Assembly: GCA_902562835.1 (NCBI GenBank)
Contig: CACEUX010000003.1
Location: 6,991 to 70,990 of the forward strand
Length of the DNA: 64,000 nucleotides
Source: an uncultured Fidelibacterota bacterium
GTDB lineage: Bacteria > Fidelibacterota > Marinisomatia > Marinisomatales > UBA1611
Direction of reading: 5' to 3'
Under the pieces are notes generated by a model, which saw nothing but the letters and a program-made list of their open reading frames with translations, did not search any database and was not told the origin of the DNA. Positions 3 through 58,737 of the stretch are shown piece after piece. The stretch's first letter is position 1, and the number at the start of each line of letters is the position of its first letter. Both the position numbers and the translations under genes were made by a program.

Positions 3-1389
<1,387 letters not shown>

Positions 1390-1390
<1 letters not shown>

Positions 1391-4809: not shown

Positions 4810-4813
4810 TTCT

Positions 4814-6864: not shown

Positions 6865-6872
6865 AATTATGA

Positions 6873-8822: not shown

Positions 8823-8909
8823 AATTTATGTTTTGATAATGTTCAGAAATCTATTTGAAATATATGTATAAAAAAACATAAAATTGGGCGTTATGAGCGA
8901 TATTATATA

Positions 8910-30664: not shown

Positions 30665-31285
30665 CTATTTTGGTTTAACCTGACGGGTAATTTTAAGATT
30701 ATCTGTGGGTCTAGTATACCAGTTACCAGCAAGTCTTCCTAAAGGCTCAAGTTTATCTAAAAGAATGTATCCATCTTCATAAATATCATCATCAATATGA
30801 AAAAGTACTATTGTACCAAGAACAACAAAGCCACTACCTGCCTTACCATCACCTACTTCTACTATTTGATCTAATTTACATTCTAGATTTATCTTTGATT
30901 CTTTGACCCTTGGAGGCGAGACTTTACTTGAAGATTCTGGCGTTAAGCCAGACACTTGAAATTCATCAATATTTAGATCAAAATCAGTAGAGCATTTCAC
31001 CATTTTTTCAGCAAATGATTCAGAAACTATATTAATTACAAATTCTTGATTATTTCTAATATTTACAAGAGTATCTTTTTCATGTCCATCCCATCCACGA
31101 CGAGCAGGCGCAAACATTATAGTAGGAGGGTTAGAACAAACGCCATTGAAGTATGAAAATGGCGCCACATTATTATTACCATCTTTTGATGTAGTTGATA
31201 CAAGTGCGATAGGCCTAGGCACGATAGAACCGATCATTAATTTATGTATTTCTGAAAAAGGTTTCTCAGTAGGGTCAAAGATCAT
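30665..31285 (-). CDS. Flavin reductase-like FMN-binding domain protein
   Basis: LMIGSIVPRPIALVSTTSKDGNNNVAPFSYFNGVCSNPP is the typical N-terminal region of the Flavin_Reduct domain. Confidence 0.8.
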   Translation of the reverse strand: MIFDPTEKPFSEIHKLMIGSIVPRPIALVSTTSKDGNNNVAPFSYFNGVCSNPPTIMFAPARRGWDGHEKDTLVNIRNNQEFVINIVSESFAEKMVKCSTDFDLNIDEFQVSGLTPESSSKVSPPRVKESKINLECKLDQIVEVGDGKAGSGFVVLGTIVLFHIDDDIYEDGYILLDKLEPLGRLAGNWYTRPTDNLKITRQVKPK

Positions 31286-34518: not shown

Positions 34519-35600
34519 AAAACTGTCTTTAAGGATTCAATAAACCTATTGTTTTCTTCTTCTGTCCCTATTGAAATACGTATGCAATTTGGCCATCCAA
34601 ATGAGGAAAGTTGTCTTATAATCACACCTAGCGCCAATAAACTTTTTGATAATTTATGTGATTGTTCTTCTGATTCCCATACAGTTGTGATGAAATTTGC
34701 TGCTGAAGGTATATGCTCCACTCCTAATATATTTAACTCTTGTTTAAAGAATTTCATTCCTTGTTTGTTAGCTTCGATCGTTTTAAGTAAAAATTCTGAA
34801 TCATCTAAAGCGGCAATCCCTGCTACTTGTGCTGTAAATGAGGGCTCAAAAGGGACCTTGACCTTAAGCAGGTTAGATATCAATTCATCATGTGCTAGTC
34901 CATATCCAATACGTACGCCACCAAGCCCAAATGCTTTTGAAAAACTACGTAATGTGATTACGTTATCATATCTATAGGTCATGGAGTCAGGGTAATCATC
35001 TATCTCATCTGCAAACTCAAAATAGGCCTCATCTAAAATAATTAATACCCTCTCAGGAACATATCGATAGAATTGATCAAATTCTTTTCTGGTTACATAA
35101 GTCCCCATTGGATTATCAGGGTTTGCTATATAAATGATCTTGGTATAGTCTGTTATCTTGGTCGCCATCATTTCTAGATTATATCGATATTTTTTCATGG
35201 GGACCCAATGAATCCTTTTTCCAGACGCATTTGCTAATACACGGAAACCTATAAATGAATTTTTAGCACTTACCAATTCATCATCACTCAGTAAGAATGT
35301 TCGCATAATAGTAGACATTATTCCTTCCGAGCCTGCGCCTAAAACTACGTTATCTACTTTTACTTTGAACCTATCAGCAAGTTTTTTTCGTAATTCATAT
35401 CCAGAGGCATCTGGATAACGATGTATGTTTTCCAAAGAATCCTTTATAGCTTGGATAGCTTTTGGAGATGCACCAAGTGGATTTTCATTAGAAGCTAGTT
35501 TAATAATATCTTTTATACCGGTTTCTCTACTAGCTTCAATAATAGGTTTGCCAGGACTATAGTTTTTTAATTTTTTGATATATGAAGGAACTAGTGGCAC
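34515..35600 (-). CDS. Class I/II PLP aminotransferase (HisC-like; probably the aromatic/tyrosine aminotransferase of this operon)
   Basis: LASNENPLG, IANPDNPMG and the PLP-lysine motif RSFSKAFGLGGVRIGY. A 4-nt overlap links it to hppD. Confidence 0.85.
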   Translation of the reverse strand: MPLVPSYIKKLKNYSPGKPIIEASRETGIKDIIKLASNENPLGASPKAIQAIKDSLENIHRYPDASGYELRKKLADRFKVKVDNVVLGAGSEGIMSTIMRTFLLSDDELVSAKNSFIGFRVLANASGKRIHWVPMKKYRYNLEMMATKITDYTKIIYIANPDNPMGTYVTRKEFDQFYRYVPERVLIILDEAYFEFADEIDDYPDSMTYRYDNVITLRSFSKAFGLGGVRIGYGLAHDELISNLLKVKVPFEPSFTAQVAGIAALDDSEFLLKTIEANKQGMKFFKQELNILGVEHIPSAANFITTVWESEEQSHKLSKSLLALGVIIRQLSSFGWPNCIRISIGTEEENNRFIESLKTVL

Positions 35601-42231: not shown

Positions 42232-44091
42232 TTGGAAATCTCTGTAGGCACAGGAATCGATCGCGTAGTTATACTAATATATTTTTTATTGGTAATGGGT
42301 TTCGGGGCATATTTTGGTAAATATAGTAAAACAACATCTGACTATTTTTTTGGTGGTAGAAGGTTCTCTTGGTGGCTTATCACAATTTCAATTGTTGCAA
42401 CTGGAATAGGGTCTCATAGTTTTGTAAAGTATTCAACCAAAGCATACCAATATGGTTTTTCATCAACCATGACATATATGAATGATTGGTTCTTCATGCC
42501 CTTATTTATGTTTGGCTGGTTACCAATTATTTATTACACAAAAGTTCGGTCTATTCCAGAATACTTCGAAAAACGGTTTAATAAAACGGCTAGATATTTG
42601 GCCACAACTATGACCCTTCTTTACATGATTGGGTATATTGCAATTCAATTGCTGACACTTGCAACTGCATTATATCGTATATATAATATCCCGCTGATGG
42701 CCACAGTTATCATTATTGCTATAGCCACATCGATATATATGCATTTTGGTGGGCAGACATCGGTAATATTTACTGACCTGTTTCAAGGATTGATTCTACT
42801 GTTTGCAGGACTTCTTTTATTCTTTCTTGGGATACAATACCTTGGGGCTGGACATTTTTCATATGGTTTGAATTCTTTCTGGAGTTTTTTAACGCCTGAG
42901 CAAAAATTACCTTTAGCGCATTTTAATCATCCTCCAAACTTTAATTTTGTTGGAATATTCTGGCAAGATGGTATTGCCGGTTCGATAGGTTTCTTATTTT
43001 TGAATCAAGGGCTAATTATGCGTTTTATGGCAGCTAAAAATGTAAATGAGGGTCGAAAAGCAGCCGCATTTAATGTTCTATTAGTTCTTCCAATATCAGC
43101 AATAGTGGTCTCTAATGCAGGATGGATTGGTAGAGCAATAGCAAATGGAATGCCTGGAATCCTCCCTATGGACCTTCAGCCAAATGATGTCTTTGTTGCC
43201 GTAACAAATATTGTAGCTAGCCCAGGCGTTTTCGGATTTATAATTGCTGCATTATGTGCAGCTCTTATGTCTACGGCTGATACATTGGTGAATGCGTCAT
43301 CTGCTATTGTTGTGAATGATATTTATGGACCGTTATCTAAAAAAGAGCAAACAGATAAGAAGCAACTAGAGGTAGCTCGTTATGCTTCGATCGGTATAAA
43401 GGTCATTGCGATTATTTTAGTTCCATTTTTTAATTCTTTCGATTCAATATATGAAGCACATGGATGGTTTCATTCGACATTTACCCCGCCACTGGTTGTT
43501 GCTGTCTTCTTAGGAATTTTTTGGAAAAGGTTTACCACACCAGCTGTTATTGCAACATTTACTGTCGGTGCATTTTTAATGATACTTGGCCAATTTAATC
43601 ATGAGCTTATAGCACCATTCTCCCATGGTATTGAGTTACGACCAGGCAGAGGGTATTCCTATATTGGTGCTCTATATAATATATTTGTTTGTGCTAGTGT
43701 TGGTGTAATTGTCAGTTTCTTAACAGCACCGCCTACTAAGGAAAAAGTAAATGGGCTAACAGTATATGATGTCGCTAACCTAAAAGTAAATTTCAAAGGT
43801 GGTAAAGTAAATGAAGATGAAGGTGAGATAGTTATTGTTGATTGGGAAATTTCTGATTCGGATGAAAATGTTATAAAATTTTCAAAAAATGATATGGAGA
43901 AAATGAAAGCAGAGGTAGGTGATTTAGTATACCTGTGTGATAATCGAAAGTGGCTTGGTGGTTTAAAGTCAATTCACTCTGTCTATGGCAATCCACATGA
44001 TGCAGATGGGGTTGTAATAATTACGAATGAACAACAGCAGAGCGGACTATTTGATAAAGGTAGAAAATTATTTGGAGAAAAAGAAATGTGA
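42232..44091 (+). CDS. Sodium:solute symporter family transporter with a ~95-aa soluble C-terminal extension
   Basis: SSS core of about 13 TM helices (FGGRRFSWW, GGQTSVIFTDLFQG). The hydrophilic tail begins around VNGLTVYDV. Confidence 0.85.
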   Translation: MEISVGTGIDRVVILIYFLLVMGFGAYFGKYSKTTSDYFFGGRRFSWWLITISIVATGIGSHSFVKYSTKAYQYGFSSTMTYMNDWFFMPLFMFGWLPIIYYTKVRSIPEYFEKRFNKTARYLATTMTLLYMIGYIAIQLLTLATALYRIYNIPLMATVIIIAIATSIYMHFGGQTSVIFTDLFQGLILLFAGLLLFFLGIQYLGAGHFSYGLNSFWSFLTPEQKLPLAHFNHPPNFNFVGIFWQDGIAGSIGFLFLNQGLIMRFMAAKNVNEGRKAAAFNVLLVLPISAIVVSNAGWIGRAIANGMPGILPMDLQPNDVFVAVTNIVASPGVFGFIIAALCAALMSTADTLVNASSAIVVNDIYGPLSKKEQTDKKQLEVARYASIGIKVIAIILVPFFNSFDSIYEAHGWFHSTFTPPLVVAVFLGIFWKRFTTPAVIATFTVGAFLMILGQFNHELIAPFSHGIELRPGRGYSYIGALYNIFVCASVGVIVSFLTAPPTKEKVNGLTVYDVANLKVNFKGGKVNEDEGEIVIVDWEISDSDENVIKFSKNDMEKMKAEVGDLVYLCDNRKWLGGLKSIHSVYGNPHDADGVVIITNEQQQSGLFDKGRKLFGEKEM

Positions 44092-44150
44092 CTTTGAGGG
44101 CTTATGAATAGACTATAAATTCGCCAACTTTTTTAATAGAAAATTATTAT

Positions 44151-44223
44151 TCCGGAGTAGCTCAGTTGGTAGAGCAGGTGGCTGTTAACCACTTTGTCGG
44201 GGGTTCGAGTCCCTCCTCCGGAG
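44151..44223 (+). tRNA. tRNA-Asn (anticodon GTT)
   Basis: Folded by hand. Acceptor stem TCCGGAG/CTCCGGA; D-arm GCTCAGTTGGTAGAGC; anticodon loop CT-GTT-AA (GTT at 44184-44186); T-arm GGGGGTTCGAGTCCCTC; discriminator G. No CCA is encoded. Confidence 0.95.
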
Positions 44224-44229
44224 CTTCGT

Positions 44230-44254
44230 AAAGCCCCTAAGTTTTAGGGGCTTT
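44230..44254. terminator. Bidirectional hairpin terminator between tRNA-Asn (+) and the XrtF operon (-)
   Basis: Perfect 10-bp stem AAAGCCCCTA / TAGGGGCTTT with a 5-nt loop. The A/T runs in the stem arms would give a U-tract in either orientation. Confidence 0.6.
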
Positions 44255-44263
44255 CCTATTTAT

Positions 44264-44758
44264 TTACCCTTCATAGACTCCTTTTAAACCTAAAAACAGT
44301 GAATAAATAAATATTGCCTGAAATAACATCTCATTAACCTGTAGTAATCCCCCTGACCAGCCATGACCCTTTATAAATAAATACCCTAATAAAGGGGGTA
44401 TGAAGCATAGACATACATGATAGATGATCAGCGCAAAGGATAGATCTTTATTTCGTATTGCGATAAACAAACTGAGAGGTAACCAAAAATATCCACCAAA
44501 AGGGATACCAAAACCTCTAGGAACATCATATTCATCTTGAAGAATGTCAATTCTTCTGGAATTATATTTTAATTCTACATTGTGTGATATAGTAAGTTCA
44601 GAAAATATTGGATAGATGTATTCAGTATTTATTTTGATCCTAACTGGTCTAATGATCAGAATATATAAAGTAGCAATAACTATCAGGCTAATGAAAACTC
44701 TGATGAGGAGGGGGTAGGGGCTTCTTCTCCAGTTAATGTCCATTGATACCAAAGCCAT
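44264..44758 (-). CDS. Exosortase F system-associated membrane protein (putative)
   Basis: About 160 aa and multi-TM, located immediately downstream of the XrtF-like gene. This is the conserved pairing described for XrtF. The start (44758 or 44743) lies inside the 3' end of xrtF. Confidence 0.6.
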   Translation of the reverse strand: MALVSMDINWRRSPYPLLIRVFISLIVIATLYILIIRPVRIKINTEYIYPIFSELTISHNVELKYNSRRIDILQDEYDVPRGFGIPFGGYFWLPLSLFIAIRNKDLSFALIIYHVCLCFIPPLLGYLFIKGHGWSGGLLQVNEMLFQAIFIYSLFLGLKGVYEG

Positions 44759-45195
44759 AGAATAAGTGGATAAAAGAAAATGAAAGGACTGAACTCATGA
44801 AATAATTCCCAATGTGGCTGAAAATATACGGTAGCCAAACTAAATGCAATAATACGTATTATATTTAAAAAATAAATAAATAATATACCAACTGCTACAA
44901 ACTTGACCTTATTCTGTAGTGACCCTTTGAAACAGATAATGAACCCTGAGTATAATATCATTAAGGTAAGTGCATTGCATTCATTCAAGACCTCAACACC
45001 TCTATATCCATTGATAGTGATAATCCTACCTAGAGAATGGATATCCCATCCAAAAATATTTAAAATAGTCTTACTTATATATACAACTGATAGGGAAAGA
45101 AATTCATCTAGTTTTCCATTTGGTAATAAAAACAGGTCATAAATGACCTGCCAAATAGTATAAAAAATAGCGGCTCTAATTAAGAACCGGAACAT
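44683..45195 (-). CDS. xrtF: Exosortase family protein XrtF
   Basis: About 170 aa and polytopic. Exosortase catalytic-type motifs appear in order: Cys (VEVLNECNALTLMILYSG), Arg (YFLNIIRIIAFSL) and His (WELFHEFSPFIFFYP). I prefer the start at MFRFLIRAAIFY (45195). The track start at 45249 would overlap the upstream miniprotein ORF. Confidence 0.7.
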   Translation of the reverse strand: MFRFLIRAAIFYTIWQVIYDLFLLPNGKLDEFLSLSVVYISKTILNIFGWDIHSLGRIITINGYRGVEVLNECNALTLMILYSGFIICFKGSLQNKVKFVAVGILFIYFLNIIRIIAFSLATVYFQPHWELFHEFSPFIFFYPLILWLWYQWTLTGEEAPTPSSSEFSLA

Positions 45196-45214
45196 AGAGT
45201 AGTATTGCTTCAGT

Positions 45215-45394
45215 TTATTTACTACGATTAAAATAACTTTTCGCTGCAATCAAAATTCCACCAATAGCAAGGAACATCAAACCATTGATAGGACCTTGGT
45301 TAGGCGCATCAGGTAATGGGGGTGGGTCTTGCGCGAAAATTACATTCAGACAGCAGAATGCAATAATGACGATAAAATTAAGTTTTTTATTCAT
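45215..45394 (-). CDS. Unlisted 59-aa miniprotein: signal peptide, Pro-rich linker, C-terminal TM helix and basic tail (candidate exosortase-F sorting-signal protein)
   Basis: Hand translation gives MNKKLNFIVIIAFCCLNVIFAQDPPPLPDAPNQGPINGLMFLAIGGILIAAKSYFNRSK. The ATG is 7 nt after the stop of the 1232-aa gene, and the stop is 19 nt before the preferred xrtF ATG. It is one codon below the track cutoff. Confidence 0.45.
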   Translation of the reverse strand: MNKKLNFIVIIAFCCLNVIFAQDPPPLPDAPNQGPINGLMFLAIGGILIAAKSYFNRSK

Positions 45395-45401
45395 AATAGC
45401 T

Positions 45402-48400
45402 TTACTTAATGTAGGTTATTTTTTGGTTAAATGATCTATCGCCAACAGCCAATTCTACAAGGTATACGCCAGATGGTAATAGCCCAGGATTCCATGAAAT
45501 CTGGTGATTGCCGGGAATCATGAATTCATTGATTAGAGATGCTACTTGTCTTCCAGTAAGATCAAAAATATTTAACGAAACATTATCCATTTCTAGAATA
45601 TCAAAACTAATGATAGTACTAGGGTTGAATGGGTTTGGATATGCATTATGGAGTGTAATATCTTCAGGGACTATTAAATTTTCATCGTCATTAGATGCAA
45701 TATCTGTATATACAGACAAAGTGAATTGTGATTCTCCAACTTCAGGATAAGTTTCCATTAGATTTTCTGGGAATAAAAACCCGCCTTTATTAGGTAGAGC
45801 TACATTCATAGATGGATATCCATAAAGATTTATTGTTTGACCGGTTACATTATTAACAAGAGATAAAGATATTCCTTCAGGGAGATTACTGATATCCCAT
45901 GTCATACTAACCTGTTCAGATTGAGTTTCATATCCTTCATCATTTGGACTTAGTAACATTACATCAAGGTCAAATGAGATATCCGTGGAAAGATCAGATG
46001 GTAGGTTATTAATTGATAGCGATTTTCCAGACTCATGTATCATACTAGTTAAATGTTCTGCGGGTGATATAGGTATAATCTGTTTTGCATCAGCATTATC
46101 TAGGTTAATATGACCATTCTCTGTGAATGAAAGATATACATTACTGGTGAATTGATCATTTGCAAATGTAAAAGTAGCAGTCCCAGTTGATTCATTGGTA
46201 GTGCTTCTACCACCATCAATATTCATATGCCCTTTTTGCATACACTGTTCAGTGAATTCAAACACATCTCCATCATTATCAGCTTGTACCCAAAATCCGT
46301 CAAAGGGTTTAATTAGACCTTGGTCTATATCTCCAACTGTACCATTATGTGTTCTATAGCCAGGGTTAGTATTATCTAGTCGGTAGACCGTAGAATGAAA
46401 TTTTGAACTATTATCTGAAAGCATCTGGTTAATGTTAACGTGAAGTCCATAGGGATTACCAACCAAGTTCCATTTTGTTGGGTTAGCAGAAACTGTGACA
46501 CCTGTTCCATTTATTGTGCCATCTACATTCAAGGTAACTGGAAGGTCATCATCTCCATCAAAATCAGTATCAGCGAAGACATAAACAACAAAACCTTGTC
46601 CAGCTTCTAAAATATCATTATTTAAATCTTCTACTGGGATCCAACCATCATCATATGTCCAAACATTTGCATCTGCGCCTTCGTGATCTGACCCTTCTGA
46701 TCCTTGGGTCCATAACTCTTCTAGAAGGTCTCCAAATATTGCACCTGATACTGGACTAGATAAGATACGGAAACCCGAATCCCCTGTAATATCGAGATGT
46801 GTTACTGCAACTGCGACATTAAACTCCTGCGTTGTGTACCCACCATTCCCATCATTCGCAATAATCTGGACATTATGGAGCCCTCCATCATTGAAAGTTG
46901 GTGTGCCACTCAATGCCATAGAAGAGGTGTAGGCTACGCTATTGCTCCAGTTTGCACCGTTAATTGTTCCATGATTCCCATTTCCTGAGATATCATAGAT
47001 TTCATTACCTGACCCTTCATTGAAATTCCAATAGGCAACGAGACCGTCTTGGTTGGGATCAATAGATTGATTCATGCCAGCATTAATCTGATCGGCAGTT
47101 CTAGAAGTATTCCATAGTCTAATATCATCTAGGTTCCCATACCACCACTCAGTGTTTCCGGGAGGATCTGCGCCAATGACAAGAGCCTCATCATTATTAT
47201 AAAATTCAAAATTACTTCCAAAATTATGAGTGGCATCAAGGTTACCATTGATATAAAAGTATCCATTTCCATTTGATTCGACCACACAAGCTACATGGGT
47301 CCAAGTATCAAGTGGTATGGTTGAGCTTGTAAAAAAATTTCCACTAGGTGATCCATTCCAGTTATACACAAGGCGCATGTAGCCTCCATATCCTTGCATT
47401 AATGAGTAAGGAGCAACCTCTGACCATCCGTTAGATCCAGTGAAGTCCCCTTTTGTGATAACTGCACCATAATCTTGGTATCTATCGATCATTATCCAGG
47501 CCTCTATTGTCATTGCATCAACAATATCTTGGTTTTCAGAATAGGGGACAGTGATACGGTCACCTCCGTTAAAATTAAGTGAGTTTGAATTTTGGTCGCT
47601 AAAATTAAGCCAGTCTGGCTTGTTGGGCGCAGTGACTGACACCATGTCACCATCAATATCATGGATTTCAATTGAATAATGATAATCGTGATTTTCTATG
47701 GTATTTAGTTGAGGTGTACTATAAAAGACTGGAAGATCATTTACAGGAATTATATCTATATCAACATCAGCTGCAGATGATGTTAGTTCACCATCAGATA
47801 CCTTGAATGAAAAATGGTCTGTTCCATTATAATTACTATTTGGAATGTAGGTAACTACATTCCCATCAAGGTCAATAGACCCATTTGATGTATATGTTTC
47901 TAGGATGAATGTTAATGTGCCGCCCTCAACATCGCCTCCTGTTAGAGTTATAATCTGTAATTCATCTTCATTGCCAGATACCGTCTGCCCATGTGCTACT
48001 GGTGTATTATTTACATCAGCCCCTTCAATAGAAATAGTTACAACACCATGGCTACTACCAATGCCACTTATATTTGTTTGATTTGATCCACTATTATAAG
48101 AACCGCCGCCGCCGCCAGCACCGCCTTGATACCATGCTCCGCCGCCACCGCCAGAATATCCGCCGCCACCGCCAGCACCACCATATCCGCCGCCGCCGCC
48201 GCCAAAACCGCCACGACCACCATACTGACCATTTCCACCATTTCCACCACTTCTAAATCCAACACCTGCCTCACTATAATGATTATAGTTACCACTACCA
48301 TTGCTGTAGAAGCCACCAGCATTTCCACCATAGGTTGATCCAGTTGCACCCATTCCGTTGCTTCCCCCTATTCCAGGCCCGCTGTAATTATTTTGGGTCG

Positions 48401-49100
48401 CATTTCCACCATTTGAACCATTGGTTCCAGTCTGACCATCTACGTAGCTTGAGCTGTTATATCCACCGCCACCACCACCAGCAGCAACGATAAGCGGGGT
48501 CGCACTTCCATAAGTTGTGCCTTGTGCAACATAACTACCACCGCCGCCACCACCACCGTAGTAATTACTATAACTGGTGTAACTTCCTAATTGACCAACT
48601 AATATATGCAGAATGTCTCCGGAGTTGAGTTGAAATGTCCCTTTAGCATACGCACCATCGCCTGGTTCTCCAATAGCCATATTTGCACCAGGCCCACCTC
48701 TGGCACCATATGCTTCTATGACATAAGTGCCAGTGGCTGGAACCTCCCAACGCTGAATACCATTAAAGACTGTAACATTCACAGTAGGGTTTGTTCCAGA
48801 ATATGCAGTAGTAGCCTGACTTTGGGAGGGGCCAAATCGGCCAGATTGGCCACAGGTAGTAAAAGTATAGACCCCATCGCCATCACGGCTATTTGAATTA
48901 ACTATAATTTTTGATAAGAAATCGTTGTATAAGCTATCAGAATTTGGTTCGATATAATTGGTTCTAGGTGAATCAGAAGGGCTCTGAATTCCATCAGATG
49001 GAACAGGTAGCATCAGTTCTTGATCTATGATTAATGATTGGCCCATTAGATATGATAGGCAAAGTATCATAGAAATTGTAAAATATTTGCTTGTTTTCAT
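45402..49100 (-). CDS. Giant T9SS-secreted surface protein: ALK/LTK-type glycine-rich domain, cadherin/Ig-like modules, LamG (concanavalin-A-like) domain and a Por_Secre_tail C-terminal domain
   Basis: Signal peptide. YTFTTCGQSGRFGPSQ...IQRWEVPATGTYVIEAYGARGG...ILHILVGQLG...GGGGGGGSYV...PLIVAAGGGGGG is collinear with the ALK/LTK TNF-like plus glycine-rich region. Other elements are VNDLPVF, a LamG-like WIMIDRY...DDIRLWNTSRTADQI, and a T9SS CTD at the C terminus (...LNIFDLTGRQV...LPSGVYLVEL...QKITYIK). Confidence 0.85.
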   Translation of the reverse strand: MKTSKYFTISMILCLSYLMGQSLIIDQELMLPVPSDGIQSPSDSPRTNYIEPNSDSLYNDFLSKIIVNSNSRDGDGVYTFTTCGQSGRFGPSQSQATTAYSGTNPTVNVTVFNGIQRWEVPATGTYVIEAYGARGGPGANMAIGEPGDGAYAKGTFQLNSGDILHILVGQLGSYTSYSNYYGGGGGGGSYVAQGTTYGSATPLIVAAGGGGGGYNSSSYVDGQTGTNGSNGGNATQNNYSGPGIGGSNGMGATGSTYGGNAGGFYSNGSGNYNHYSEAGVGFRSGGNGGNGQYGGRGGFGGGGGGYGGAGGGGGYSGGGGGAWYQGGAGGGGGSYNSGSNQTNISGIGSSHGVVTISIEGADVNNTPVAHGQTVSGNEDELQIITLTGGDVEGGTLTFILETYTSNGSIDLDGNVVTYIPNSNYNGTDHFSFKVSDGELTSSAADVDIDIIPVNDLPVFYSTPQLNTIENHDYHYSIEIHDIDGDMVSVTAPNKPDWLNFSDQNSNSLNFNGGDRITVPYSENQDIVDAMTIEAWIMIDRYQDYGAVITKGDFTGSNGWSEVAPYSLMQGYGGYMRLVYNWNGSPSGNFFTSSTIPLDTWTHVACVVESNGNGYFYINGNLDATHNFGSNFEFYNNDEALVIGADPPGNTEWWYGNLDDIRLWNTSRTADQINAGMNQSIDPNQDGLVAYWNFNEGSGNEIYDISGNGNHGTINGANWSNSVAYTSSMALSGTPTFNDGGLHNVQIIANDGNGGYTTQEFNVAVAVTHLDITGDSGFRILSSPVSGAIFGDLLEELWTQGSEGSDHEGADANVWTYDDGWIPVEDLNNDILEAGQGFVVYVFADTDFDGDDDLPVTLNVDGTINGTGVTVSANPTKWNLVGNPYGLHVNINQMLSDNSSKFHSTVYRLDNTNPGYRTHNGTVGDIDQGLIKPFDGFWVQADNDGDVFEFTEQCMQKGHMNIDGGRSTTNESTGTATFTFANDQFTSNVYLSFTENGHINLDNADAKQIIPISPAEHLTSMIHESGKSLSINNLPSDLSTDISFDLDVMLLSPNDEGYETQSEQVSMTWDISNLPEGISLSLVNNVTGQTINLYGYPSMNVALPNKGGFLFPENLMETYPEVGESQFTLSVYTDIASNDDENLIVPEDITLHNAYPNPFNPSTIISFDILEMDNVSLNIFDLTGRQVASLINEFMIPGNHQISWNPGLLPSGVYLVELAVGDRSFNQKITYIK
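48103..48560 (-). repeat. Glycine-codon (GGN) low-complexity tracts inside the giant gene
   Basis: Runs of ccgccgccgccgcc/caccacc on the plus strand (dense at 48103-48250 and 48463-48560) encode poly-Gly stretches. They also generate spurious ORFs in other frames and on the other strand. Confidence 0.8.
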
Positions 49101-49296
49101 TTTTTGGCTTTTAAATTGTATTGGTCACGTAATATTTAACCTATATTTACAAATATCATACCAAAACTACTTAATTTTTACATAATAAAAAAAGCCAGTA
49201 GTATAAATCTTTATTAAAGATAGAATGTATTGAATTGTGACACTATTCACTAAGAATATTGTCTAATTATGTTACATTTTTATTCCCCTCTAATAT

Positions 49297-50925
49297 TTAC
49301 TGTTCCTTACGCCATTTAGCACCAGGGTATAAATACTGTGCATATCGATAGACCTCCCATGCTTTCTCACCCTCTCCCAATGCTTCATATGCGGTAGCTA
49401 GGTCATAGTAAATGAATAAGTATGGAGAATGACCTACGTACTGTTCTGCCCATTCAATGTAGTCATTTAGTTTTTCTATATTTTTGGTTTTTTTAGCGAT
49501 ATTCAGATTCAATTTCATTATTAGGGTTTCATATTTCTTTTGCCATGAATAGGGGTTAACAATTGAGACTAGAAGTGATGGGTTCTTATAGCCTGTCCTC
49601 TCAAATTGGGTAATTACTGATGCTGTTTTGAGGGTTGTCCCCATATAAACTGTAATGACAAAAGGGATAACGAATGAAAAAAAACGAAAAATAGAGGAGA
49701 AGCTAACTTTTGTTTCAAAATGGTTACCAAATTCACTATCGATCAAATAAATAATAAAAATGAAAATGATCCAATGAGCTAGAGAGATATAAAAAGGGAG
49801 CTCTAGTTGTGAATGGATTAGTATAGGTAAAAGAATGCCCAACATCGCCCAAGCTTTTTTTTGCTTTACCCTCCATATCATATTTAAAAAACCGCCTGCC
49901 ATGATCAGTAATCCTATTAAGGGAATAATACCTCCTTCAACTGTCCAAAAAAGTAACTCATTATGTGGGTGATCCATGTTGCTATTACCAATTGTCTGAA
50001 GTGATGGATCGTCGATTTTACGTTTTGCATAATGATGTCTAAAAGCTGAAAGAAAATTTCCATAGCCTATTCCAAAGATCGGATTATTTTTTATCATTTC
50101 ATAAGTAAGCTGGTATGTCACTATTCTGGTATTCTCAGAGTATTCTATCTCTTTTGTTGGCCTAGTATTATTTATTGTAAGAGCACCAATTAAAAGGCCT
50201 GTAAGTAGTAGTCCAAACCAGAAAAAAAGAATCTTATTTCTTAAATTTCTATAGAAAATTAGAAATATTATTCCAGCTATTAGAGATAAGTACCCTGTAC
50301 GAGATTGGAGGTGATATATCTGGAGACTTGTAAAAAATGGTACGCAAAAAACAAGTATGCGGCTTAAGAAATTATTGATTATATAATTTTCTTTTACTAC
50401 TAAAAAAAGGGATAATGCGGCCCCCGTTGATAAGAATGAAGCGAAAATATTTTTTTGGGCCATCGCACTAAACTGTGGCTGAATAAAAGAAGAATATTTT
50501 AATAATATCTGAATTAAAACACTTCCAAGAATTACACATAAGAACTTATCTTTTTCTTCTTTGCTGAATTGAAACTGTGAAAAAGATAAATACAATAATA
50601 GGCCACCAAAGAGGCCCATTATTCTCATTAAGACAAGGCTAGCATGAATATTATTTGGATAGAAAAATGGAGCTAACATGATGATGGATCCAATAAAAAA
50701 GTATATCTGTAGTTTGGTAATAAATAACTTTTCAGAACTGCTGATCTGGTATAAGCCCATCCCTATCAGAAGTGATACAAAGATCCAGCCAATAATATTA
50801 AATGGAAGATAGAGTCCGTGGCCACCAACATGGTCGAGTGAGATATGTATTCCAAATAGGAAGTAGATCGAAAAAATATAAAAAAAGGTATTCCTAATAT
50901 TTAGATCAAGAATTTTTTTCATCAC
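49297..50925 (-). CDS. O-antigen ligase / PglL-like (Wzy_C) membrane protein with a C-terminal TPR-like tail
   Basis: Polytopic. The Wzy_C loop motif is present (MDHPHNELLFWTVEGGIIPLIG), and the soluble tail has a TPR-like YYDLATAYEALGEGEKAWEVYRYAQYLYP. Confidence 0.75.
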   Translation of the reverse strand: MMKKILDLNIRNTFFYIFSIYFLFGIHISLDHVGGHGLYLPFNIIGWIFVSLLIGMGLYQISSSEKLFITKLQIYFFIGSIIMLAPFFYPNNIHASLVLMRIMGLFGGLLLYLSFSQFQFSKEEKDKFLCVILGSVLIQILLKYSSFIQPQFSAMAQKNIFASFLSTGAALSLFLVVKENYIINNFLSRILVFCVPFFTSLQIYHLQSRTGYLSLIAGIIFLIFYRNLRNKILFFWFGLLLTGLLIGALTINNTRPTKEIEYSENTRIVTYQLTYEMIKNNPIFGIGYGNFLSAFRHHYAKRKIDDPSLQTIGNSNMDHPHNELLFWTVEGGIIPLIGLLIMAGGFLNMIWRVKQKKAWAMLGILLPILIHSQLELPFYISLAHWIIFIFIIYLIDSEFGNHFETKVSFSSIFRFFSFVIPFVITVYMGTTLKTASVITQFERTGYKNPSLLVSIVNPYSWQKKYETLIMKLNLNIAKKTKNIEKLNDYIEWAEQYVGHSPYLFIYYDLATAYEALGEGEKAWEVYRYAQYLYPGAKWRKEQ

Positions 50926-51098
50926 ATCACAAAATTTTATTGGTCTATTGATAAAATATTGATTTAAAGGATCTTTTGATCAATTAAGTTAACGATAGAA
51001 AAAACATATCTTATCCAATTTTAAATATGGTATTAATTAGGCAAATAACTTTTTTCTTAATTTTATAAAATTAATTATTGAGTAAATAAGGCTTAAAA

Positions 51099-53585
51099 TT
51101 GAAAAAAGATACCAAAATATGTCAGGATTTGGGTCAAGGCTGGGAGTTCAGGTCCATTGATAAGAAGTGGTTGAGCGCGAGTGTACCTGGTAATATTCAT
51201 TTAGACCTAATGAATCATGAATTGATACCAGACCCATTTATCGGTAGTAATGAATCAGAATTACAATGGATCTCAGACAAGGATTGGACATACAGACTTT
51301 TTTTTAAACCTGATAAAGGAATCATAGGCAAAAGGAATAAAGGGATATGTTTCCATGGGATTGATACATATGCAGACGTTTTCTTGAATGACAAGAAGAT
51401 AATTAGTTCGAACAATATGTTTCATCCATGGGTTGCTAATATCAATAATATTCTCACCACAGATATAAATAAGTTGGTTATTGTACTACGGTCGCCAATT
51501 AAAGAAGTACTCCCTTTAATGCAAAAACTAGATTATGTCCTTCCAGCTGAAAATGATCAGGCAGGCAAGACAAGTCCATTTACTAGAAAAGCGCCCTTTC
51601 ACTATGGATGGGACTGGGGTCCTTGTTTAGTCACTTCAGGGATATGGAAAAATGTAGAGCTTTTTGGTTGGGACGATTGGTACATAACGGATGTATCGGT
51701 CATCAATACAAAGGCAGATCTCAAGAGCGCTTCTTTAAATGTGTTAGCTAACATTATATCAAATATTCAGGAGAAAGGTAAGGTCTCCATAACTGAATCT
51801 ATAACAGGGAAAAGCACAGAATACCCTATTAGCATAAGGAATGGAAAAAATGAACTAGAGTTCTTGTTTATTATCAATGATCCTGAGCTTTGGTGGCCTG
51901 TGGGTCATGGAGACCAGCCTCTATATGATCTTGATATTCAAGTGCATTTGGACAATTGTGAGCAAAAATTCAAAAAGAGGATCGGGCTAAGAGAGGTGTC
52001 TATCAATAGGCAAAAGGATAAGAGAGGGGAGTCATTCGAGATACGCATTAATGATACACCAATTTTTGCAAAGGGAGCAAATTGGATACCTGCTGACTCT
52101 TTTGTTGAGCGCTTAACACGGGATGATTATGATAGATTGATTAAAGATGCTGTGTCAGCAAACATGAATACGCTTCGTATATGGGGAGGTGGAGTTTATG
52201 AGCCTGATTGTTTCTATGAGATATGTGATGAAATGGGAGTGTTGGTGTGGCAAGATTTTATGTTTGCTTGCTCTATGTATCCAGCGCATGATGAATTTTT
52301 AGCTTCTGTGGAGACGGAAGCTAGGTTCCAATTAGATCGATTGAAAGAACATGCATGTATTGTTCTTTGGTGTGGTAACAACGAGATTGCTTCTGGATGG
52401 CTAAGCTGGGGGTGGAAAGAGGAACTCCCAGACTCTGTTTGGAAAGATTACGATACGCTGTTCCATCAATTACTCCCAAATACATGTAAAGAGTTAGACC
52501 CCGGAAGGCTATACTGGCCTAGTTCACCAGGACATAGTCTTAATCTTCCTGAAACAGATCAGATCTATGGAAGCGGTGATAATCATTATTGGGGTGTTTG
52601 GCATGGGGGCGATGGCTTCGAGGCATTTGAAGAAAATGTTGGTCGCTTTATGTCAGAGTATGGAATGCAATCTTTCCCTGGCGTATCAACAATAAAGACA
52701 TTTGCTAATGATAAGGACCTAAGTATTGATTCAGAAGTTATGGAAGCACATCAGAAAGCGCATCTAGGAACAGGCAATCTAGTTAAATACATTGAAGATC
52801 ATTATGTTTTAAAAGGAGACTTTGAATCTACCGTTGCTTTAAGCCAGGTCATGCAGGCGCAGGCCATAAGGTCGGCTGTGGAAAGCCATCGAAGGAACAT
52901 GCCCTTTTGTATGGGAACGCTATATTGGCAGTTCAATGATTGTTGGCCAGGTATATCCTGGGCCAGCCTAGACTATGAAGGTAACTGGAAAGCACTACAT
53001 TATTTTGCAAAACGATTTTTTAATCCGATATTGATCTCAGTCATAGAAAATAATGATATGATAAATGTCTATATTATTAATGATTTAAAGGAAGGATGCT
53101 CAGCGGAGTTATCAGCAAGATCGTATAAATTTGATGGTTCCATTCTTTTTGAAGAAAGAATAGAACTAGATATAAGACCACATTCATCAAATATTGTACT
53201 CAGTATGAGTAAGAATGATCTGATCGGTAAAAATAAACCATCTGAAGTATTTATGAAATGTGATTTACTTTCAGACAAACAGGTCATGAGTACTAACAAC
53301 CATTTTTTCCTAAAGCCAAAAAATTTGGCTTTGCCGAAAGCAGAGTTTGATTTTTACCATAAAAAGGTAGATGATAATTATTTAATTACCATTCGCGCAC
53401 ATTCATTCATCTACCAATTACATCTGCACTCTATGAATGTGAAGGGCATCTTTAGCAATAATTATTTTGAAATGCTGCCCAATGAAGAGGTGGCAATTGA
53501 ATTCAAACCGTCTAAATATTTTGAGGCAAATGGTGCCCCTGTCTCTTTTGAGATCAATACTGTATATGAATTAATGAATAAATAA
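51099..53585 (+). CDS. Beta-mannosidase (GH2), no signal peptide
   Basis: LWWPVGHGDQPLY, FAKGANWIPADSF, WCGNNEI (acid/base Glu) and FMSEYGMQSFP (nucleophile Glu). The start is TTG and the N terminus is not signal-like. Confidence 0.85.
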   Translation: MKKDTKICQDLGQGWEFRSIDKKWLSASVPGNIHLDLMNHELIPDPFIGSNESELQWISDKDWTYRLFFKPDKGIIGKRNKGICFHGIDTYADVFLNDKKIISSNNMFHPWVANINNILTTDINKLVIVLRSPIKEVLPLMQKLDYVLPAENDQAGKTSPFTRKAPFHYGWDWGPCLVTSGIWKNVELFGWDDWYITDVSVINTKADLKSASLNVLANIISNIQEKGKVSITESITGKSTEYPISIRNGKNELEFLFIINDPELWWPVGHGDQPLYDLDIQVHLDNCEQKFKKRIGLREVSINRQKDKRGESFEIRINDTPIFAKGANWIPADSFVERLTRDDYDRLIKDAVSANMNTLRIWGGGVYEPDCFYEICDEMGVLVWQDFMFACSMYPAHDEFLASVETEARFQLDRLKEHACIVLWCGNNEIASGWLSWGWKEELPDSVWKDYDTLFHQLLPNTCKELDPGRLYWPSSPGHSLNLPETDQIYGSGDNHYWGVWHGGDGFEAFEENVGRFMSEYGMQSFPGVSTIKTFANDKDLSIDSEVMEAHQKAHLGTGNLVKYIEDHYVLKGDFESTVALSQVMQAQAIRSAVESHRRNMPFCMGTLYWQFNDCWPGISWASLDYEGNWKALHYFAKRFFNPILISVIENNDMINVYIINDLKEGCSAELSARSYKFDGSILFEERIELDIRPHSSNIVLSMSKNDLIGKNKPSEVFMKCDLLSDKQVMSTNNHFFLKPKNLALPKAEFDFYHKKVDDNYLITIRAHSFIYQLHLHSMNVKGIFSNNYFEMLPNEEVAIEFKPSKYFEANGAPVSFEINTVYELMNK

Positions 53586-53610
53586 TGATGTTTTTTTGAT
53601 AGAGGATATA

Positions 53611-54249
53611 ATGGAAGATAGCAAAGCACTAGATTGGGCATACCTTGCTCGTTATCAAGATGATAATTTAAAGGTCGGTCTACCAAAGAAAAATGAAAGA
53701 AGGGTCATTTTCATGGGTGATTCTATTACAGAAGATTGGTCTAACCTCTATCCAGAATATTTTATTGGAAGAGGTTATATAAATAGAGGTATTGGAGGTC
53801 AGACCACTTCTCAAATGTTGATCAGGTTCAAGCCAGATGTAGTTGATCTAAAACCAGAAATCGTGGTCGTTCTTGCGGGTACGAATGATATAGCAGGGAA
53901 TACGGGTCCCTCTAATGCTAAAATGATCACAGATAATATCTTCTCAATGGCTGAAATAGCCAAAGCTTATCAAATGAAAGTGGTCTTATCATCTATTCTT
54001 CCTGTCTACGAGTATGATTGGGCAAAAGAGATAAAAGACCTGCCATCTACTATTCAAGCTGTGAATGAGGCTCTTAAACAATATGCCAGCGATCATGAAC
54101 TGATATATCTCGATTATTTTTCATCTATGGTCGATGAACGGCAGGGCTTGAATTCAGATTACACTTCCGATGGAGTTCATCCAAATGAAAGTGGGTATAT
54201 CCTCATGTCTAGCCTGGCGGAAGAGGTGCTTTCAGAGTTGCTTAATTGA
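53611..54249 (+). CDS. SGNH/GDSL hydrolase (PAF-acetylhydrolase-like; possible carbohydrate O-acetylesterase)
   Basis: FMGDSITEDW, GIGGQTT, AGTNDI and DGVHPN. I prefer the ATG at 53611 over the TTG at 53596. Confidence 0.8.
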   Translation: MEDSKALDWAYLARYQDDNLKVGLPKKNERRVIFMGDSITEDWSNLYPEYFIGRGYINRGIGGQTTSQMLIRFKPDVVDLKPEIVVVLAGTNDIAGNTGPSNAKMITDNIFSMAEIAKAYQMKVVLSSILPVYEYDWAKEIKDLPSTIQAVNEALKQYASDHELIYLDYFSSMVDERQGLNSDYTSDGVHPNESGYILMSSLAEEVLSELLN

Positions 54250-54277
54250 TTTTACTTCAGATAGCTACACAAGGATA

Positions 54278-55567
54278 ATGAATACACTTACAACGAATAA
54301 ATGGTTGCGGGTCACAACTCTATGTATACTCTATTTTGCACAAGGGTTTCCATGGGGTTTTATGTTGACAGCGCTGTTATCTTATTTAGCATCAAAAGGT
54401 TTAACATTAGCAGAGTCGGGTCAGCTGACCGCAATGGCTTATTTACCATGGACATTTAAGATCTTTTGGGGGCCTATTATTGATTCTTTTACTTACAGGG
54501 TGATGGGTAGGAGGCGTCCCTGGATCTTATTCGCACAGTTTGGTATGGCCCTCACTCTTATTACAATGTTGTGGATGGGTGACCTATCAGCAAATATTGG
54601 TTTATTGGGTTGGATGTTCTTTTTTCATAATTGCTTTGCTTCTCTCCAAGATGTGAGTTGCGATGCTCTGGCTGTTGATATATTGTTACCTGAAGAGCAG
54701 GGCAAGGTGAATGGTGCAATGTGGGGTTCTAAGGTAATTGGGACAGGAATGGGCGCAGTGGTAATGGGCACCTTACTAACATCGAAGGGTCTTGCTTTTG
54801 CTATAGGATCACAAACCATTCTCATGTTTGCTATTATTTCCTTTCCTCTGTTTATTCTCGAACGTCCAGGGGAAAAGAGATTCCCATGGAGCAGGGCCAT
54901 TGGTGAATCAATAAAACATGAGAGCAGTGTGAAAAACCCAATTGAGGTCATCAAAGATCTGTTGACCGCATTTTCTAAACGTCCGTGCTTTTTTGCAGGT
55001 TTATTCATTTTGATATCAGCCATCAACCAAGGCATAAATAGTGGCGTATTACCAGTTTATTATAGTAGCATTCTAAATTGGCAGTCAGATACTTACGCGC
55101 AGATCGTTGGGGGACCAAGTGCAATTCTTGAGTTCTTTGGAGCGATCCTTGGAGGACTACTGGCAGATCGCTATGGGAAGAGGAAGGTCTTCTTTTTAGG
55201 ATGGGGCAGTTTTTCAATTCTTTCGGGGGTTTTTGGTATAATGGTCCTCACATCTGATCAATTGCCGTATTGGTTTCAACTATTTTACTTAGTTGTCCAT
55301 CCTTGTTTGATAGCAATTGGGACTGTATCCATGTTTGCCTTAGCTATGGCTCTATCGTGGTCAAAGGCTTCTGCTACTATGTTTACATCTTATATGGCTA
55401 TCTCAAACATGTCTGTTGTTATTGGAGGCAAACTGATCGGGCCATTGACAGAGTTAATGAGTATAGGTCAGATATATATTATAATGATGTTCGTATGTTT
55501 AACACCTGTTCTTTTTCTTAAATCAATGAACCCCAGGCCCATATTGGATATTAAAATAAACGATTAA
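54278..55567 (+). CDS. AmpG/PAT-family MFS permease
   Basis: The N terminus LYFAQGFPWGFM..., the loop RRRPW and about 12-14 TM helices. I prefer the start at MNTLTTNKW (54278). The track ORF begins at 54170 inside the previous gene. Confidence 0.75.
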   Translation: MNTLTTNKWLRVTTLCILYFAQGFPWGFMLTALLSYLASKGLTLAESGQLTAMAYLPWTFKIFWGPIIDSFTYRVMGRRRPWILFAQFGMALTLITMLWMGDLSANIGLLGWMFFFHNCFASLQDVSCDALAVDILLPEEQGKVNGAMWGSKVIGTGMGAVVMGTLLTSKGLAFAIGSQTILMFAIISFPLFILERPGEKRFPWSRAIGESIKHESSVKNPIEVIKDLLTAFSKRPCFFAGLFILISAINQGINSGVLPVYYSSILNWQSDTYAQIVGGPSAILEFFGAILGGLLADRYGKRKVFFLGWGSFSILSGVFGIMVLTSDQLPYWFQLFYLVVHPCLIAIGTVSMFALAMALSWSKASATMFTSYMAISNMSVVIGGKLIGPLTELMSIGQIYIIMMFVCLTPVLFLKSMNPRPILDIKIND

Positions 55568-55579
55568 TTAGGATAATCA

Positions 55580-56662
55580 ATGCACCTCTTAACTAGAACT
55601 TTATCTACTTTAACCTTGCTCTCCACTGTACATGGCCAAGGATTCTGGGGCAATGAATTTCCAGAGCCAAAGATCGAGTATGCGCCACGTACATACGTTT
55701 GCCATAAGGCGGATTCGCCTATTTTGCTGGATGGGAAATTAAATGATATTGCTTGGACAAATACAGATTGGACAGATTCATTTGTTGACATTGAAGGGAG
55801 TCTAAAGCCTAAACCATTTTATGATACAAAGGTTAAAATGCTCTGGGATGATAATTATTTCTACTTTGGAGTAGAAATGGAAGAACCACACATTTGGGCA
55901 ACACTTAAAGAAAGAGACGCGGTCATTTATTATGATAATGACTTTGAAATATTTTTAGATCCAGATGGAGATACTCATAATTATTATGAATTGGAGGTTA
56001 ATGCATACGAAACGGAGTGGGACCTTATTCTTATGGCTCCTTACCACGATCATGACAAAGTTGCACTTGATTCTTGGGATATCCCTGGGCTTATATCCAA
56101 GGTAAATATAGATGGTACTCTAAATGACCCATCGGACATGGATAAGGGATGGAGCGTTGAGATCGCAATCCCATGGAAAGCCTTTTACAATAATTATCGT
56201 TCAAATGAATCTCCAAAGGACGGGGAACAGTGGAAGGTTAATTTTTCAAGAGTTCAGTGGGATGTTGATATTATTGAAGGTAAATATGTAAAAACAGATA
56301 ATCCAGAATTTAATTGGGTCTGGTCGCCTCAGGGACATATCTACATGCATTTTCCACACTTCTGGGGCTTGGTTCAGTTTACGGAAAAAGCTCCTGGGAC
56401 TGAAAAAGTTGAATATATCGATAATGGATTAGATAAGGTCAAATGGGCGCTTAGACAGGTCTACATAAGGCAGAGGAATTACTTTTTCAAGAATGAACGT
56501 TACACGGCATCTCTCAAAGAATTAAATCTTATGACCAAGCCAGTAGAAGGCGTAGTATGGCCGCCAGATATTATTGTGACACCATCAGGATGGGAAGCTG
56601 AATTAGATTGGAATGGAGAATCTGTTATTATCAGAAAAGATGGAAAGGTCTGGGTGAAGTAA
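55580..56662 (+). CDS. Secreted carbohydrate-binding family 9 (CBM9/DOMON-like) domain protein
   Basis: Signal peptide (TLLSTVHGQ). DGKLNDIAW...WTDSFVDIEG...KMLWDDNYFYFGVEMEEPHIWA...DNDFEIFLDPDGD..NYYELEVN is the typical CBM9-like pattern. Confidence 0.65.
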   Translation: MHLLTRTLSTLTLLSTVHGQGFWGNEFPEPKIEYAPRTYVCHKADSPILLDGKLNDIAWTNTDWTDSFVDIEGSLKPKPFYDTKVKMLWDDNYFYFGVEMEEPHIWATLKERDAVIYYDNDFEIFLDPDGDTHNYYELEVNAYETEWDLILMAPYHDHDKVALDSWDIPGLISKVNIDGTLNDPSDMDKGWSVEIAIPWKAFYNNYRSNESPKDGEQWKVNFSRVQWDVDIIEGKYVKTDNPEFNWVWSPQGHIYMHFPHFWGLVQFTEKAPGTEKVEYIDNGLDKVKWALRQVYIRQRNYFFKNERYTASLKELNLMTKPVEGVVWPPDIIVTPSGWEAELDWNGESVIIRKDGKVWVK

Positions 56663-56664
56663 TT

Positions 56665-58734: not shown

Positions 58735-58737
58735 TTT

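Follow-up and report, generated by a model that had tools for sequence, protein, structure and literature searches.

Gene organization and host

We analyzed a five-gene locus in a 64,000-nucleotide stretch of DNA (hereafter, the window) from an uncultured Fidelibacterota bacterium (contig CACEUX010000003.1 of GenBank assembly GCA_902562835.1), in which the gene of a predicted exosortase lies downstream of the genes for a miniprotein of 59 amino acids (aa) and for a giant predicted type IX secretion system (T9SS) substrate. All five genes are on the minus strand. The farthest upstream is an open reading frame with Pfam matches that encodes a Wzy_C/Wzy_C_2 membrane protein of 542 aa (49297-50925). 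It is followed by the open reading frame of the giant T9SS type A substrate (1232 aa, 45402-49100), identified by its domain matches; the miniprotein gene (45215-45394), an open reading frame with a family of relatives; the XrtX-like exosortase gene (170 aa from its ATG, 44683-45195), assigned by scores on the models NF046081, TIGR04128 and TIGR04178; and the gene of a partner membrane protein (44264-44758; 164 aa, or 159 aa if translation starts with Met6 at 44743), an open reading frame recognized by its conservation. The giant and miniprotein genes are 7 nt apart, 19 nt separate the miniprotein gene from the exosortase ATG, and the exosortase gene shares 61-76 nt with the partner gene. An earlier note on this DNA had described five co-directional genes between a hairpin (44230-44254) and a 173-nt divergent region (50926-51098), and all these features are present.

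The closest homologues of the exosortase come from marine metagenomes and from metagenome-assembled genomes (MAGs) named Candidatus Marinimicrobia or Neomarinimicrobiota, the best match to a genome being MAG TMED46, with 96% identity. By these homologues, the host is a member of the Marinimicrobia (SAR406), within the wider FCB (Fibrobacteres-Chlorobi-Bacteroidetes) group, and not of the Bacteroidota, the phylum of the exosortase type named in the earlier note. The T9SS occurs in this wider group (PMC11205867).

The exosortase and its partner

The exosortase passes both the superfamily signature TIGR04178 (53 bits, cutoff 23) and the Pfam family PF09721 (Exosortase_EpsH; 43.8 bits, cutoff 25.7). 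Residues Cys73, Arg114 and His133 are invariant across 25 exosortase homologues, and the distance of 41 residues from Cys73 to Arg114 equals the spacing between Cys173 and Arg214 of ArtA, both of which are essential for catalysis (PMC9263693). Judging by the signature scores together with the conserved Cys and Arg, the 170-aa protein is a genuine member of the exosortase/archaeosortase superfamily; the superfamily scores and the 61-76 nt overlap bear out the earlier prediction of an exosortase with an overlapping gene for a small partner with multiple transmembrane (TM) segments.

Among the curated families, XrtX is the closest. The window exosortase scores 142.6 bits on the XrtX model NF046081, under the curated cutoff of 170, and the exosortase of L019, one of 27 related loci described below, scores 148.7 bits. 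For 25 of 25 aligned clade members, XrtX is the top family (best E 2.1e-42) and XrtF the second. On the XrtF model TIGR04128, with its cutoff of 90, the window protein reaches 73.5 bits in a 188-aa form that begins at an alternative upstream TTG, and 67 bits in the 170-aa form, the length at which near-identical database proteins are annotated. The XrtX score is about twice as high, and we rejected the XrtF identity, under which the enzyme had been introduced in the earlier note: the protein does not score as XrtF. By sequence comparison, the exosortase is a sub-threshold sister of XrtX, its closest curated family. An AlphaFold model built from 25 sequences has 6 helices, with a short beta hairpin between the second and the third, and a fold search with this model, at a pLDDT (predicted local distance difference test) of 68.4, gave no significant match in the PDB and no solved relative.

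The partner protein comprises about four helices and a loop, PRGFGIPFGGYFWLP, that is invariant. The gene for it comes immediately after the exosortase gene in 22 loci, always with an overlap at the 3' end of the latter; the orthologues favor the start at Met6, and in the distant loci L019, L023 and L026 the protein is 28-30% identical to that of the window. A comparison of the partner and 11 orthologues to NCBIfam at E<=10 returned no match to any model, including that of the exosortase F system-associated protein, as which the partner had been labeled, and Pfam yielded a spurious weak match only. On these grounds, we rejected assignment to a known family. A single-sequence AlphaFold model of the partner was poor (pLDDT 57.7) and unfit for a fold search. 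The gene layout resembles that of the XrtF partner, but family membership is not assignable from the sequence.

The miniprotein family

The miniprotein starts with a signal peptide (aa 1-21, ending …IFA|Q). The mature peptide QDPPPLPDAPNQGPI (aa 22-36) comes next and is followed by N-G, the hydrophobic stretch LMFLAIGGILIAA and a basic tail, KSYFNRSK. Its C-terminal end reads …GPING-LMFLAIGGILIAA-KSYFNRSK-stop and has the tripartite form of a motif, a hydrophobic stretch and a basic cluster.

At E<=10, a profile of 9 miniprotein copies matched 418 cluster representatives, of which the best 120 are without exception 57-61 aa long, with E-values of ~1e-27 to 1e-30. In 119 homologues, the mature part reads D-P-P-x-L-P-G-A-P-N-Q-G-P-I-x-G, followed by ~13 hydrophobic residues and K-K-Y-F-x-x-x-K; most columns of the mature part are invariant, and the signal peptide is variable. 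A HMMER search of 1.84 billion representative proteins at E<=0.001 produced 25 matches, all of 43-118 aa except for one repetitive artefact that aligns to the signal-peptide part of the profile. With a second profile search, we recovered 1700 proteins at E<=1, the best 120 of which are all 54-136 aa; the distant sub-clades are exemplified by AQPxFPGAPNQAPIGGLGLLAAAGG…KK and AQPPGLPSxPSQAPIDGGLGLLAAAGG…KK. The family comprises hundreds of relatives of 55-66 aa, each with a signal peptide ending in A|Q, a proline-rich peptide of ~15 residues, P-I-x-G, a hydrophobic stretch and a basic tail. The consensus after the Sec signal peptide spans ~13-15 residues, Q-x1-3-[FL]-P-x-x-P-x-Q-[AG]-P-I-x-G, and continues into the hydrophobic stretch and a Lys/Arg tail. 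The 59-aa open reading frame is a real, strongly constrained gene, far beyond chance.

For the distant relatives of the miniprotein, the best NCBIfam family is PID-CTERM (NF046080). Its cutoff of 26 bits is exceeded by two of them, P0188 at 36.9 bits and P0189 at 33.4 bits; P0189 comes from the cultured Gracilimonas mengyeensis and carries the NCBI name 'PID-CTERM protein-sorting domain-containing protein'. The family thus merges gradually with genuine PID-CTERM proteins. The window miniprotein itself had no PID-CTERM match when compared to NCBIfam at E<=10, two of the nine Marinimicrobia copies reach no better than E = 0.029, and NCBI annotates the Marinimicrobia miniproteins as hypothetical. 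The proposal in the earlier note that the 59-aa protein is a conserved miniprotein, with a signal peptide and a tripartite C-terminal signal, that has relatives beside exosortase genes in other genomes was confirmed. Its companion idea of an orphan enzyme without a defined signal does not hold, given that XrtX is the nearest family and the miniproteins connect to PID-CTERM.

Each related locus contains exactly one miniprotein copy. Large proteins with the same C-terminal signal were not found in ~278 kb of related DNA or among the 1.84 billion representatives (E<=0.001), a search that weak matches confined to the C-terminus would escape. Two further possibilities were considered and set aside. 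A read-through fusion of the giant protein and the miniprotein was rejected because the intergenic gaps (7, 8, 9, 11, 13 and 55 nt) preserve no frame and the miniprotein has its own signal peptide. PglL-like O-glycosylation of the miniprotein is unlikely, the mature peptide being without a conserved Ser or Thr.

Residues A|Q or G|Q end four of about eight signal peptides predicted in the window (those from 45394-45332, 49100-49041, 21500- and 55580-). The Q-rule was described for Bacteroidetes and reported not to hold across the whole FCB group (PMC5837995); the window hints that a similar preference extends to this Marinimicrobia genome.

The giant T9SS protein and its RemZ-like module

The giant protein consists of a signal peptide (…LMG|QS; hydrophobic at aa 7-25), a Gly-rich part (34% Gly at residues ~100-360), a Big_9/cadherin-like domain (364-450), Laminin_G_3 (511-673), a RemZ-like module (aa ~750-1150; 45651-46853, minus strand), which was recognized by homology with a profile and is without a Pfam match, and a C-terminal sorting domain (CTD; aa 1154-1228; 45417-45641, minus strand). 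The CTD (Por_Secre_tail) scores 32.8 bits on TIGR04183 (cutoff 23) and 34.1 bits on PF18962 (cutoff 27). With a CTD above the cutoffs and a signal peptide, the giant protein is by prediction a T9SS type A substrate, and the description of a 1232-aa secreted protein with a T9SS CTD in the earlier note stands.

The relatives of the giant protein vary in length from 820 to 1657 aa; their N-terminal two-thirds differ markedly, close relatives included, and the last ~490 residues are conserved. For example, the proteins of the window and of L009 are 35% identical over the first ~200 residues and 64% identical over the C-terminal part. The conserved ~490 residues show 26-31% identity over ~500 aa to the proteins encoded upstream of the miniprotein in Gracilimonas (L018), L019 and L021. 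A profile of 10 module sequences matches residues 701-1017 of RemZ (PDB 8gl8 chain D) with E 4.6e-8 and 35.5 bits; the single window sequence alone did not match RemZ, and the homology appears with the 10-sequence profile. By this comparison, the module is homologous to Flavobacterium RemZ outside the CTD, and with RemZ being a homologue of RemA-type adhesins, an adhesin role is predicted for the giant protein. Many metagenome contigs (L001, L002, L006, L014 and L022-L026) end at the miniprotein gene or within the giant gene, which suggests that the N-terminal part is a hypervariable or repetitive adhesin passenger that breaks assemblies.

Gene linkage across related loci

To survey the related loci, hidden Markov models of the module, the miniprotein, the exosortase and the partner were run on six-frame translations of 27 fetched loci and the window. 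By miniprotein sequence, these loci represent the window's own lineage and 16 others. Of the 17 distinct lineages with upstream DNA, 16, cultured Gracilimonas included, have a RemZ-like/CTD gene whose end is 7-55 nt ahead of the miniprotein gene; L017 is the exception. The complete order RemZ-like gene, miniprotein, exosortase and partner is found in the window and 13 loci (L003-L005, L007-L013, L015, L019 and L023). In L026, a short CTD match precedes the trio of miniprotein, exosortase and partner. Exosortase identity to the window protein is 41-44% in L019, L023 and L026. In five more loci (L001, L002, L006, L014 and L025), the miniprotein, exosortase and partner genes run from the contig end, so that the upstream gene lies outside the contig. 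The module of L020 (7384-12987) is frameshifted, and no partner was detected there.

The adhesin-miniprotein pair also occurs apart from the exosortase. In L016, the pair (2616-7772, minus strand) is inverted as a unit, and the exosortase and partner genes (7968-8953) and the Wzy_C gene keep their orientation. The pair is present without an exosortase gene within the fetched flanks in L018, L021, L022 and L027. Furthermore, an identical miniprotein, P0274, is located behind a RemZ-like gene and followed by unrelated genes in L024 (1-474), and precedes the exosortase and partner genes in L025 (66-1220). From the table of loci, the L016 inversion, the exosortase-free pairs and the two contexts of P0274, it follows that the miniprotein has a tighter link with the adhesin gene than with that of the exosortase. 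Some genomes may hold several adhesin-miniprotein cassettes. This link between the miniprotein and the RemZ-like module is the strongest linkage that we detected, and it is absent from the earlier note; the five-gene order that the note described for the window recurs in other genomes.

Three observations on individual loci should be mentioned. In L025, the gene caller missed the exosortase and partner genes and called open reading frames on the opposite strand instead. The frameshifts in L020, a locus with 29% GC, probably come from long-read assembly, and a second RemZ-like paralogue is located on the opposite strand just downstream. In L019, ~2 kb upstream of the module and on the opposite strand (395-5876), there are genes for glycosyltransferases, a Polysacc_synt flippase and an Acetyltransf_6/FemAB-like protein, which presumably belongs to the same family as VimA and pep-cterm_femAB. 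This polysaccharide cluster could supply an amino-acid-modified sugar acceptor.

The Wzy_C gene and the surroundings of the locus

The 542-aa protein has ~9 hydrophobic segments and passes both Wzy_C (PF04932; 63.3 bits, cutoff 31.7) and Wzy_C_2 (PF11846; 116.1 bits, cutoff 28.5), which places it, by sequence, in the O-antigen-ligase/PglL-like family. The earlier note was right about this family; its tetratricopeptide-repeat tail turned out to be the Wzy_C_2 region. In NCBIfam, the protein has no match at E<=0.01, exosortase-A-associated ligase models included, and a spurious match to IctB (E = 0.25) is the sole one at E<=10; no solved structural relative was found by sequence. A Wzy_C homologue is located upstream of the adhesin gene in 8 of 8 Marinimicrobia loci with enough upstream DNA, and none was found in L017 or in the non-Marinimicrobia loci fetched. 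The co-occurrence that the earlier note had proposed is thus valid within Marinimicrobia and does not extend beyond. In the same Marinimicrobia loci, the genes for an SSF transporter, HIT, EF-G, ManC and SfsA are equally syntenic, and because these genes are unrelated to the system, a functional tie between the Wzy_C gene and the exosortase is possible rather than established. L010 (11-3321) carries two tandem Wzy_C-like genes upstream of the adhesin gene, which are 36% and 55% identical to the window protein.

The hairpin at 44230-44254, detected by a terminator scan and assigned to neither strand, has an 11-bp stem and sits between the partner gene and a convergent tRNA-Asn (GTT) gene (44151-44224, plus strand). 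With one hairpin for both genes, it is likely a bidirectional terminator. At the other end of the locus, the divergent intergenic region at 50926-51098, delimited by open reading frame coordinates, separates the Wzy_C gene from a GH2 beta-mannosidase gene (Pfam matches on 51099-53585). A sigma-70-like scan gave no match within this region, and in 44000-51300 the number of matches was at or below the expectation from shuffled sequence, so that no promoter is supported. The flanking genes include a mannoside-utilisation cluster on the plus strand (51099-61800), with the GH2 beta-mannosidase, a GDSL esterase, an MFS transporter, a CBM9 protein, an SSF symporter and a GH38 alpha-mannosidase, and a tyrosine/homogentisate catabolism cluster on the minus strand (31282-35600), with a homogentisate dioxygenase-like protein, an FAA hydrolase, an HPPD-type glyoxalase and an aminotransferase. 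No polysaccharide or exopolysaccharide (EPS) cluster genes and no Wbp or Vim genes were found in the window.

Discussion

The results presented here are best compared with several described systems. The closest is XrtX/PID-CTERM (NF046081 and NF046080, the latter also Pfam PF28310), which provides the best enzyme family and a tripartite signal with P-I-[D/G/N]-G. However, the window motif is P-I-N-G as opposed to P-I-D-G-G, both window proteins fall below the respective cutoffs (170 and 26 bits), and the host phylum is Marinimicrobia, where the miniproteins are annotated as hypothetical. NF046080 and NF046081 are adjacent NCBIfam accessions, and we take XrtX and PID-CTERM to be curated as a cognate pair; our literature search found no paper on XrtX or PID-CTERM.

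The XrtF system of Flavobacterium johnsoniae (Fjoh_1448/1449) is similar in that an exosortase of ~170 aa is encoded next to a small multi-TM partner in an FCB bacterium. Deletions of xrtF and of the partner gene showed the same pattern of phenotypes as deletions of porU and porZ in six assays, which fits a T9SS connection, and the same 2024 study still describes the substrates of exosortase F as unidentified (PMC10936215). The window locus differs from this system in an enzyme score below the cutoff and in a partner that is unrelated at HMMER sensitivity. The XrtA/EpsH-PEP-CTERM and ArtA-PGF-CTERM systems share with it the enzyme superfamily, the conserved Cys and Arg, and a signal composed of a motif, a TM segment and a basic tail. 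These systems process many large passenger proteins, whereas here the sole detected substrate is passenger-less and the window contains no EPS cluster. Wzy-type ligase genes occur in XrtA loci. Finally, T9SS surface attachment (PorU, PorZ and the linking sugar of anionic lipopolysaccharide, A-LPS) and the adhesins RemA/RemZ provide a parallel through the type A CTD and the module homologous to RemZ 701-1017. PorU couples the C-terminal end of the cargo to a Ser or Gly residue on the linking sugar, at the amine of that residue (PMC7468200). Unlike in this locus, neither an exosortase nor a miniprotein is known as a component of the T9SS described so far. Because the curated cutoffs of all three families, XrtX, XrtF and PID-CTERM, were failed, we do not file the locus, on its sequences, as a strict member of any of them.

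Taken together, these comparisons suggest, with reasonable probability, that the locus is a Marinimicrobia-specific branch of the XrtX/PID-CTERM type of exosortase system, organized as an operon of a RemZ-like T9SS adhesin, the miniprotein, the exosortase and its partner. Under this model, Sec would export the miniprotein, which would be cut after Ala21 and stay in the inner membrane through its C-terminal hydrophobic stretch and its basic tail. The exosortase, with Cys73 as the nucleophile and Arg114, would cut at or near P-I-x-G and transfer the proline-rich peptide of ~15 residues to a lipid or glycan acceptor bearing an amine, which would be joined to the new C-terminus of the peptide. The transfer step is proposed by analogy with the lipid anchoring of ArtA/PGF-CTERM substrates, which depends on PssA/PssD (PMC9263693), and with a proposal for PEP-CTERM. 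The partner would be an accessory subunit of the exosortase. Since the miniprotein is without a passenger domain and its gene is inherited along with that of the adhesin, the processed peptide is most likely not a cargo itself but works for the adhesin, for instance in surface retention or anchoring. Adhesin surface retention is the most economical reading of the linkage and the precedents. The weakest link of the proposal is that, in Marinimicrobia, the acceptor may be supplied or moved by the Wzy_C-type ligase.

Several points weigh against this model. Cleavage, the acceptor and the contact with the adhesin are deduced from sequence and not from biochemistry, and the window exosortase and miniprotein score below the curated XrtX and PID-CTERM cutoffs. 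The hydrophobic stretch of the miniprotein is short, ~14-16 residues. Other substrates, that is, short C-terminal signals on large proteins, could escape a profile search, and the fetched loci cover a part of each genome, that of Gracilimonas included. In one locus, L017, the genes for the miniprotein, the exosortase and the partner are present with no RemZ-like gene upstream. Moreover, gene order is generally conserved in this clade, and the linkage of the Wzy_C gene may be passive.

The last two points lead to the alternative that the T9SS protein and the Wzy_C gene are bystanders to a trio of exosortase, miniprotein and partner. Gene order offers this alternative some support: the SSF transporter, HIT, EF-G, ManC and SfsA genes keep the same order in the Marinimicrobia loci, Wzy_C is absent from all non-Marinimicrobia loci as well as from L017, and L017 is also without an adhesin gene upstream. 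For the adhesin, however, passive synteny is difficult to reconcile with a pairing that survives the L016 inversion, separation from the exosortase (L018, L021, L027 and L024) and divergence of the exosortase to ~42% identity (L019, L023 and L026), all with gaps of 7-55 nt. For Wzy_C, the counterargument, that linkage persists in L011 and L013 despite diverged adhesin size and sequence, is weak. As an account of both genes, we find passive synteny improbable; for the Wzy_C gene taken separately, the chances appear about even. A different alternative retains the linkage and drops the cleavage: the miniprotein would span the inner membrane once and act as a small subunit or regulator, either in the exosortase complex or in adhesin export, its likeness to a sorting signal being incidental. 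Conservation of the whole mature part, beyond a motif of 3-4 residues, would be expected of such a subunit, as would the lack of a passenger domain and the overlapping or abutting genes, an arrangement seen for multi-subunit complexes, and the window copy is under the PID-CTERM cutoff. Nevertheless, the architecture at the extreme C-terminus is exactly tripartite, the family is continuous with curated PID-CTERM domains, and the adjoining exosortase has intact catalytic residues, so that we regard an uncleaved miniprotein as unlikely too.

Far less plausible is the reading offered by the earlier note, in which this would be an XrtF system with an XrtF-associated partner and the miniprotein would provide the sorting signal that XrtF has lacked. 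For the 25 clade members, XrtF does rank second among the families (best E 1.8e-21), and the layout, a small exosortase with an adjacent small membrane protein, is like that of Fjoh_1448/1449. Against this stand the score of 67-73.5 bits under a cutoff of 90, half that of XrtX, by which the membership claim is already refuted, the 12 partner orthologues (the window protein included) without an NCBIfam match at E<=10, the Marinimicrobia host and the link of the miniprotein to PID-CTERM.

The XrtX/PID-CTERM-type model can be extended, speculatively and with low expectation on our part, to two sortase-type reactions in series, in which the miniprotein would give rise to an anchor or linker dedicated to RemA/RemZ-like T9SS adhesins. 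The XrtX-like enzyme and its partner would act in the inner membrane and attach the peptide C-terminus to the amine of a lipid or glycan; the Wzy_C ligase of Marinimicrobia may then pass this product on; and at the surface, the adhesin would be tethered to it, covalently by PorU or through binding by the RemZ-like module. If true, such a series would account for the lack of a passenger domain, for inheritance with the adhesin gene and not with the exosortase gene, and for the match between the xrtF/partner and porU/porZ phenotypes in F. johnsoniae. VimA has been likened to the exosortase-associated pep-cterm_femAB family (Veith et al.). The version with PorU forming a covalent link is weakened by a peptide that is without Lys and likely has an N-terminal pyroglutamate.

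Relative to the known systems that we found, three aspects of the locus appear to be new: a passenger-less miniprotein as the only detectable substrate, the coupling of this miniprotein to a RemZ-like T9SS adhesin across distant lineages, and a partner protein that is obligate but unclassified. The miniprotein or the T9SS context may already have been noted by those who curated NF046080 and NF046081. To our knowledge, experiments have yet to show a substrate or product for the small exosortases of the FCB group (XrtF and XrtX), and we know of no clear account of how T9SS adhesins outside Porphyromonas, such as RemA, stay on the cell surface. The cassette described here joins these two questions, by pairing a passenger-less substrate with a RemZ-like type A adhesin; it is found in uncultured Marinimicrobia, and the adhesin-miniprotein pair is present in cultured Gracilimonas as well. 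Because the proteins fall below the cutoffs of the curated models, abundant ocean bacteria of the SAR406 group carry this system unannotated. With a mechanism that we infer, the locus represents a testable link between two surface-anchoring systems, the exosortases and T9SS surface attachment.

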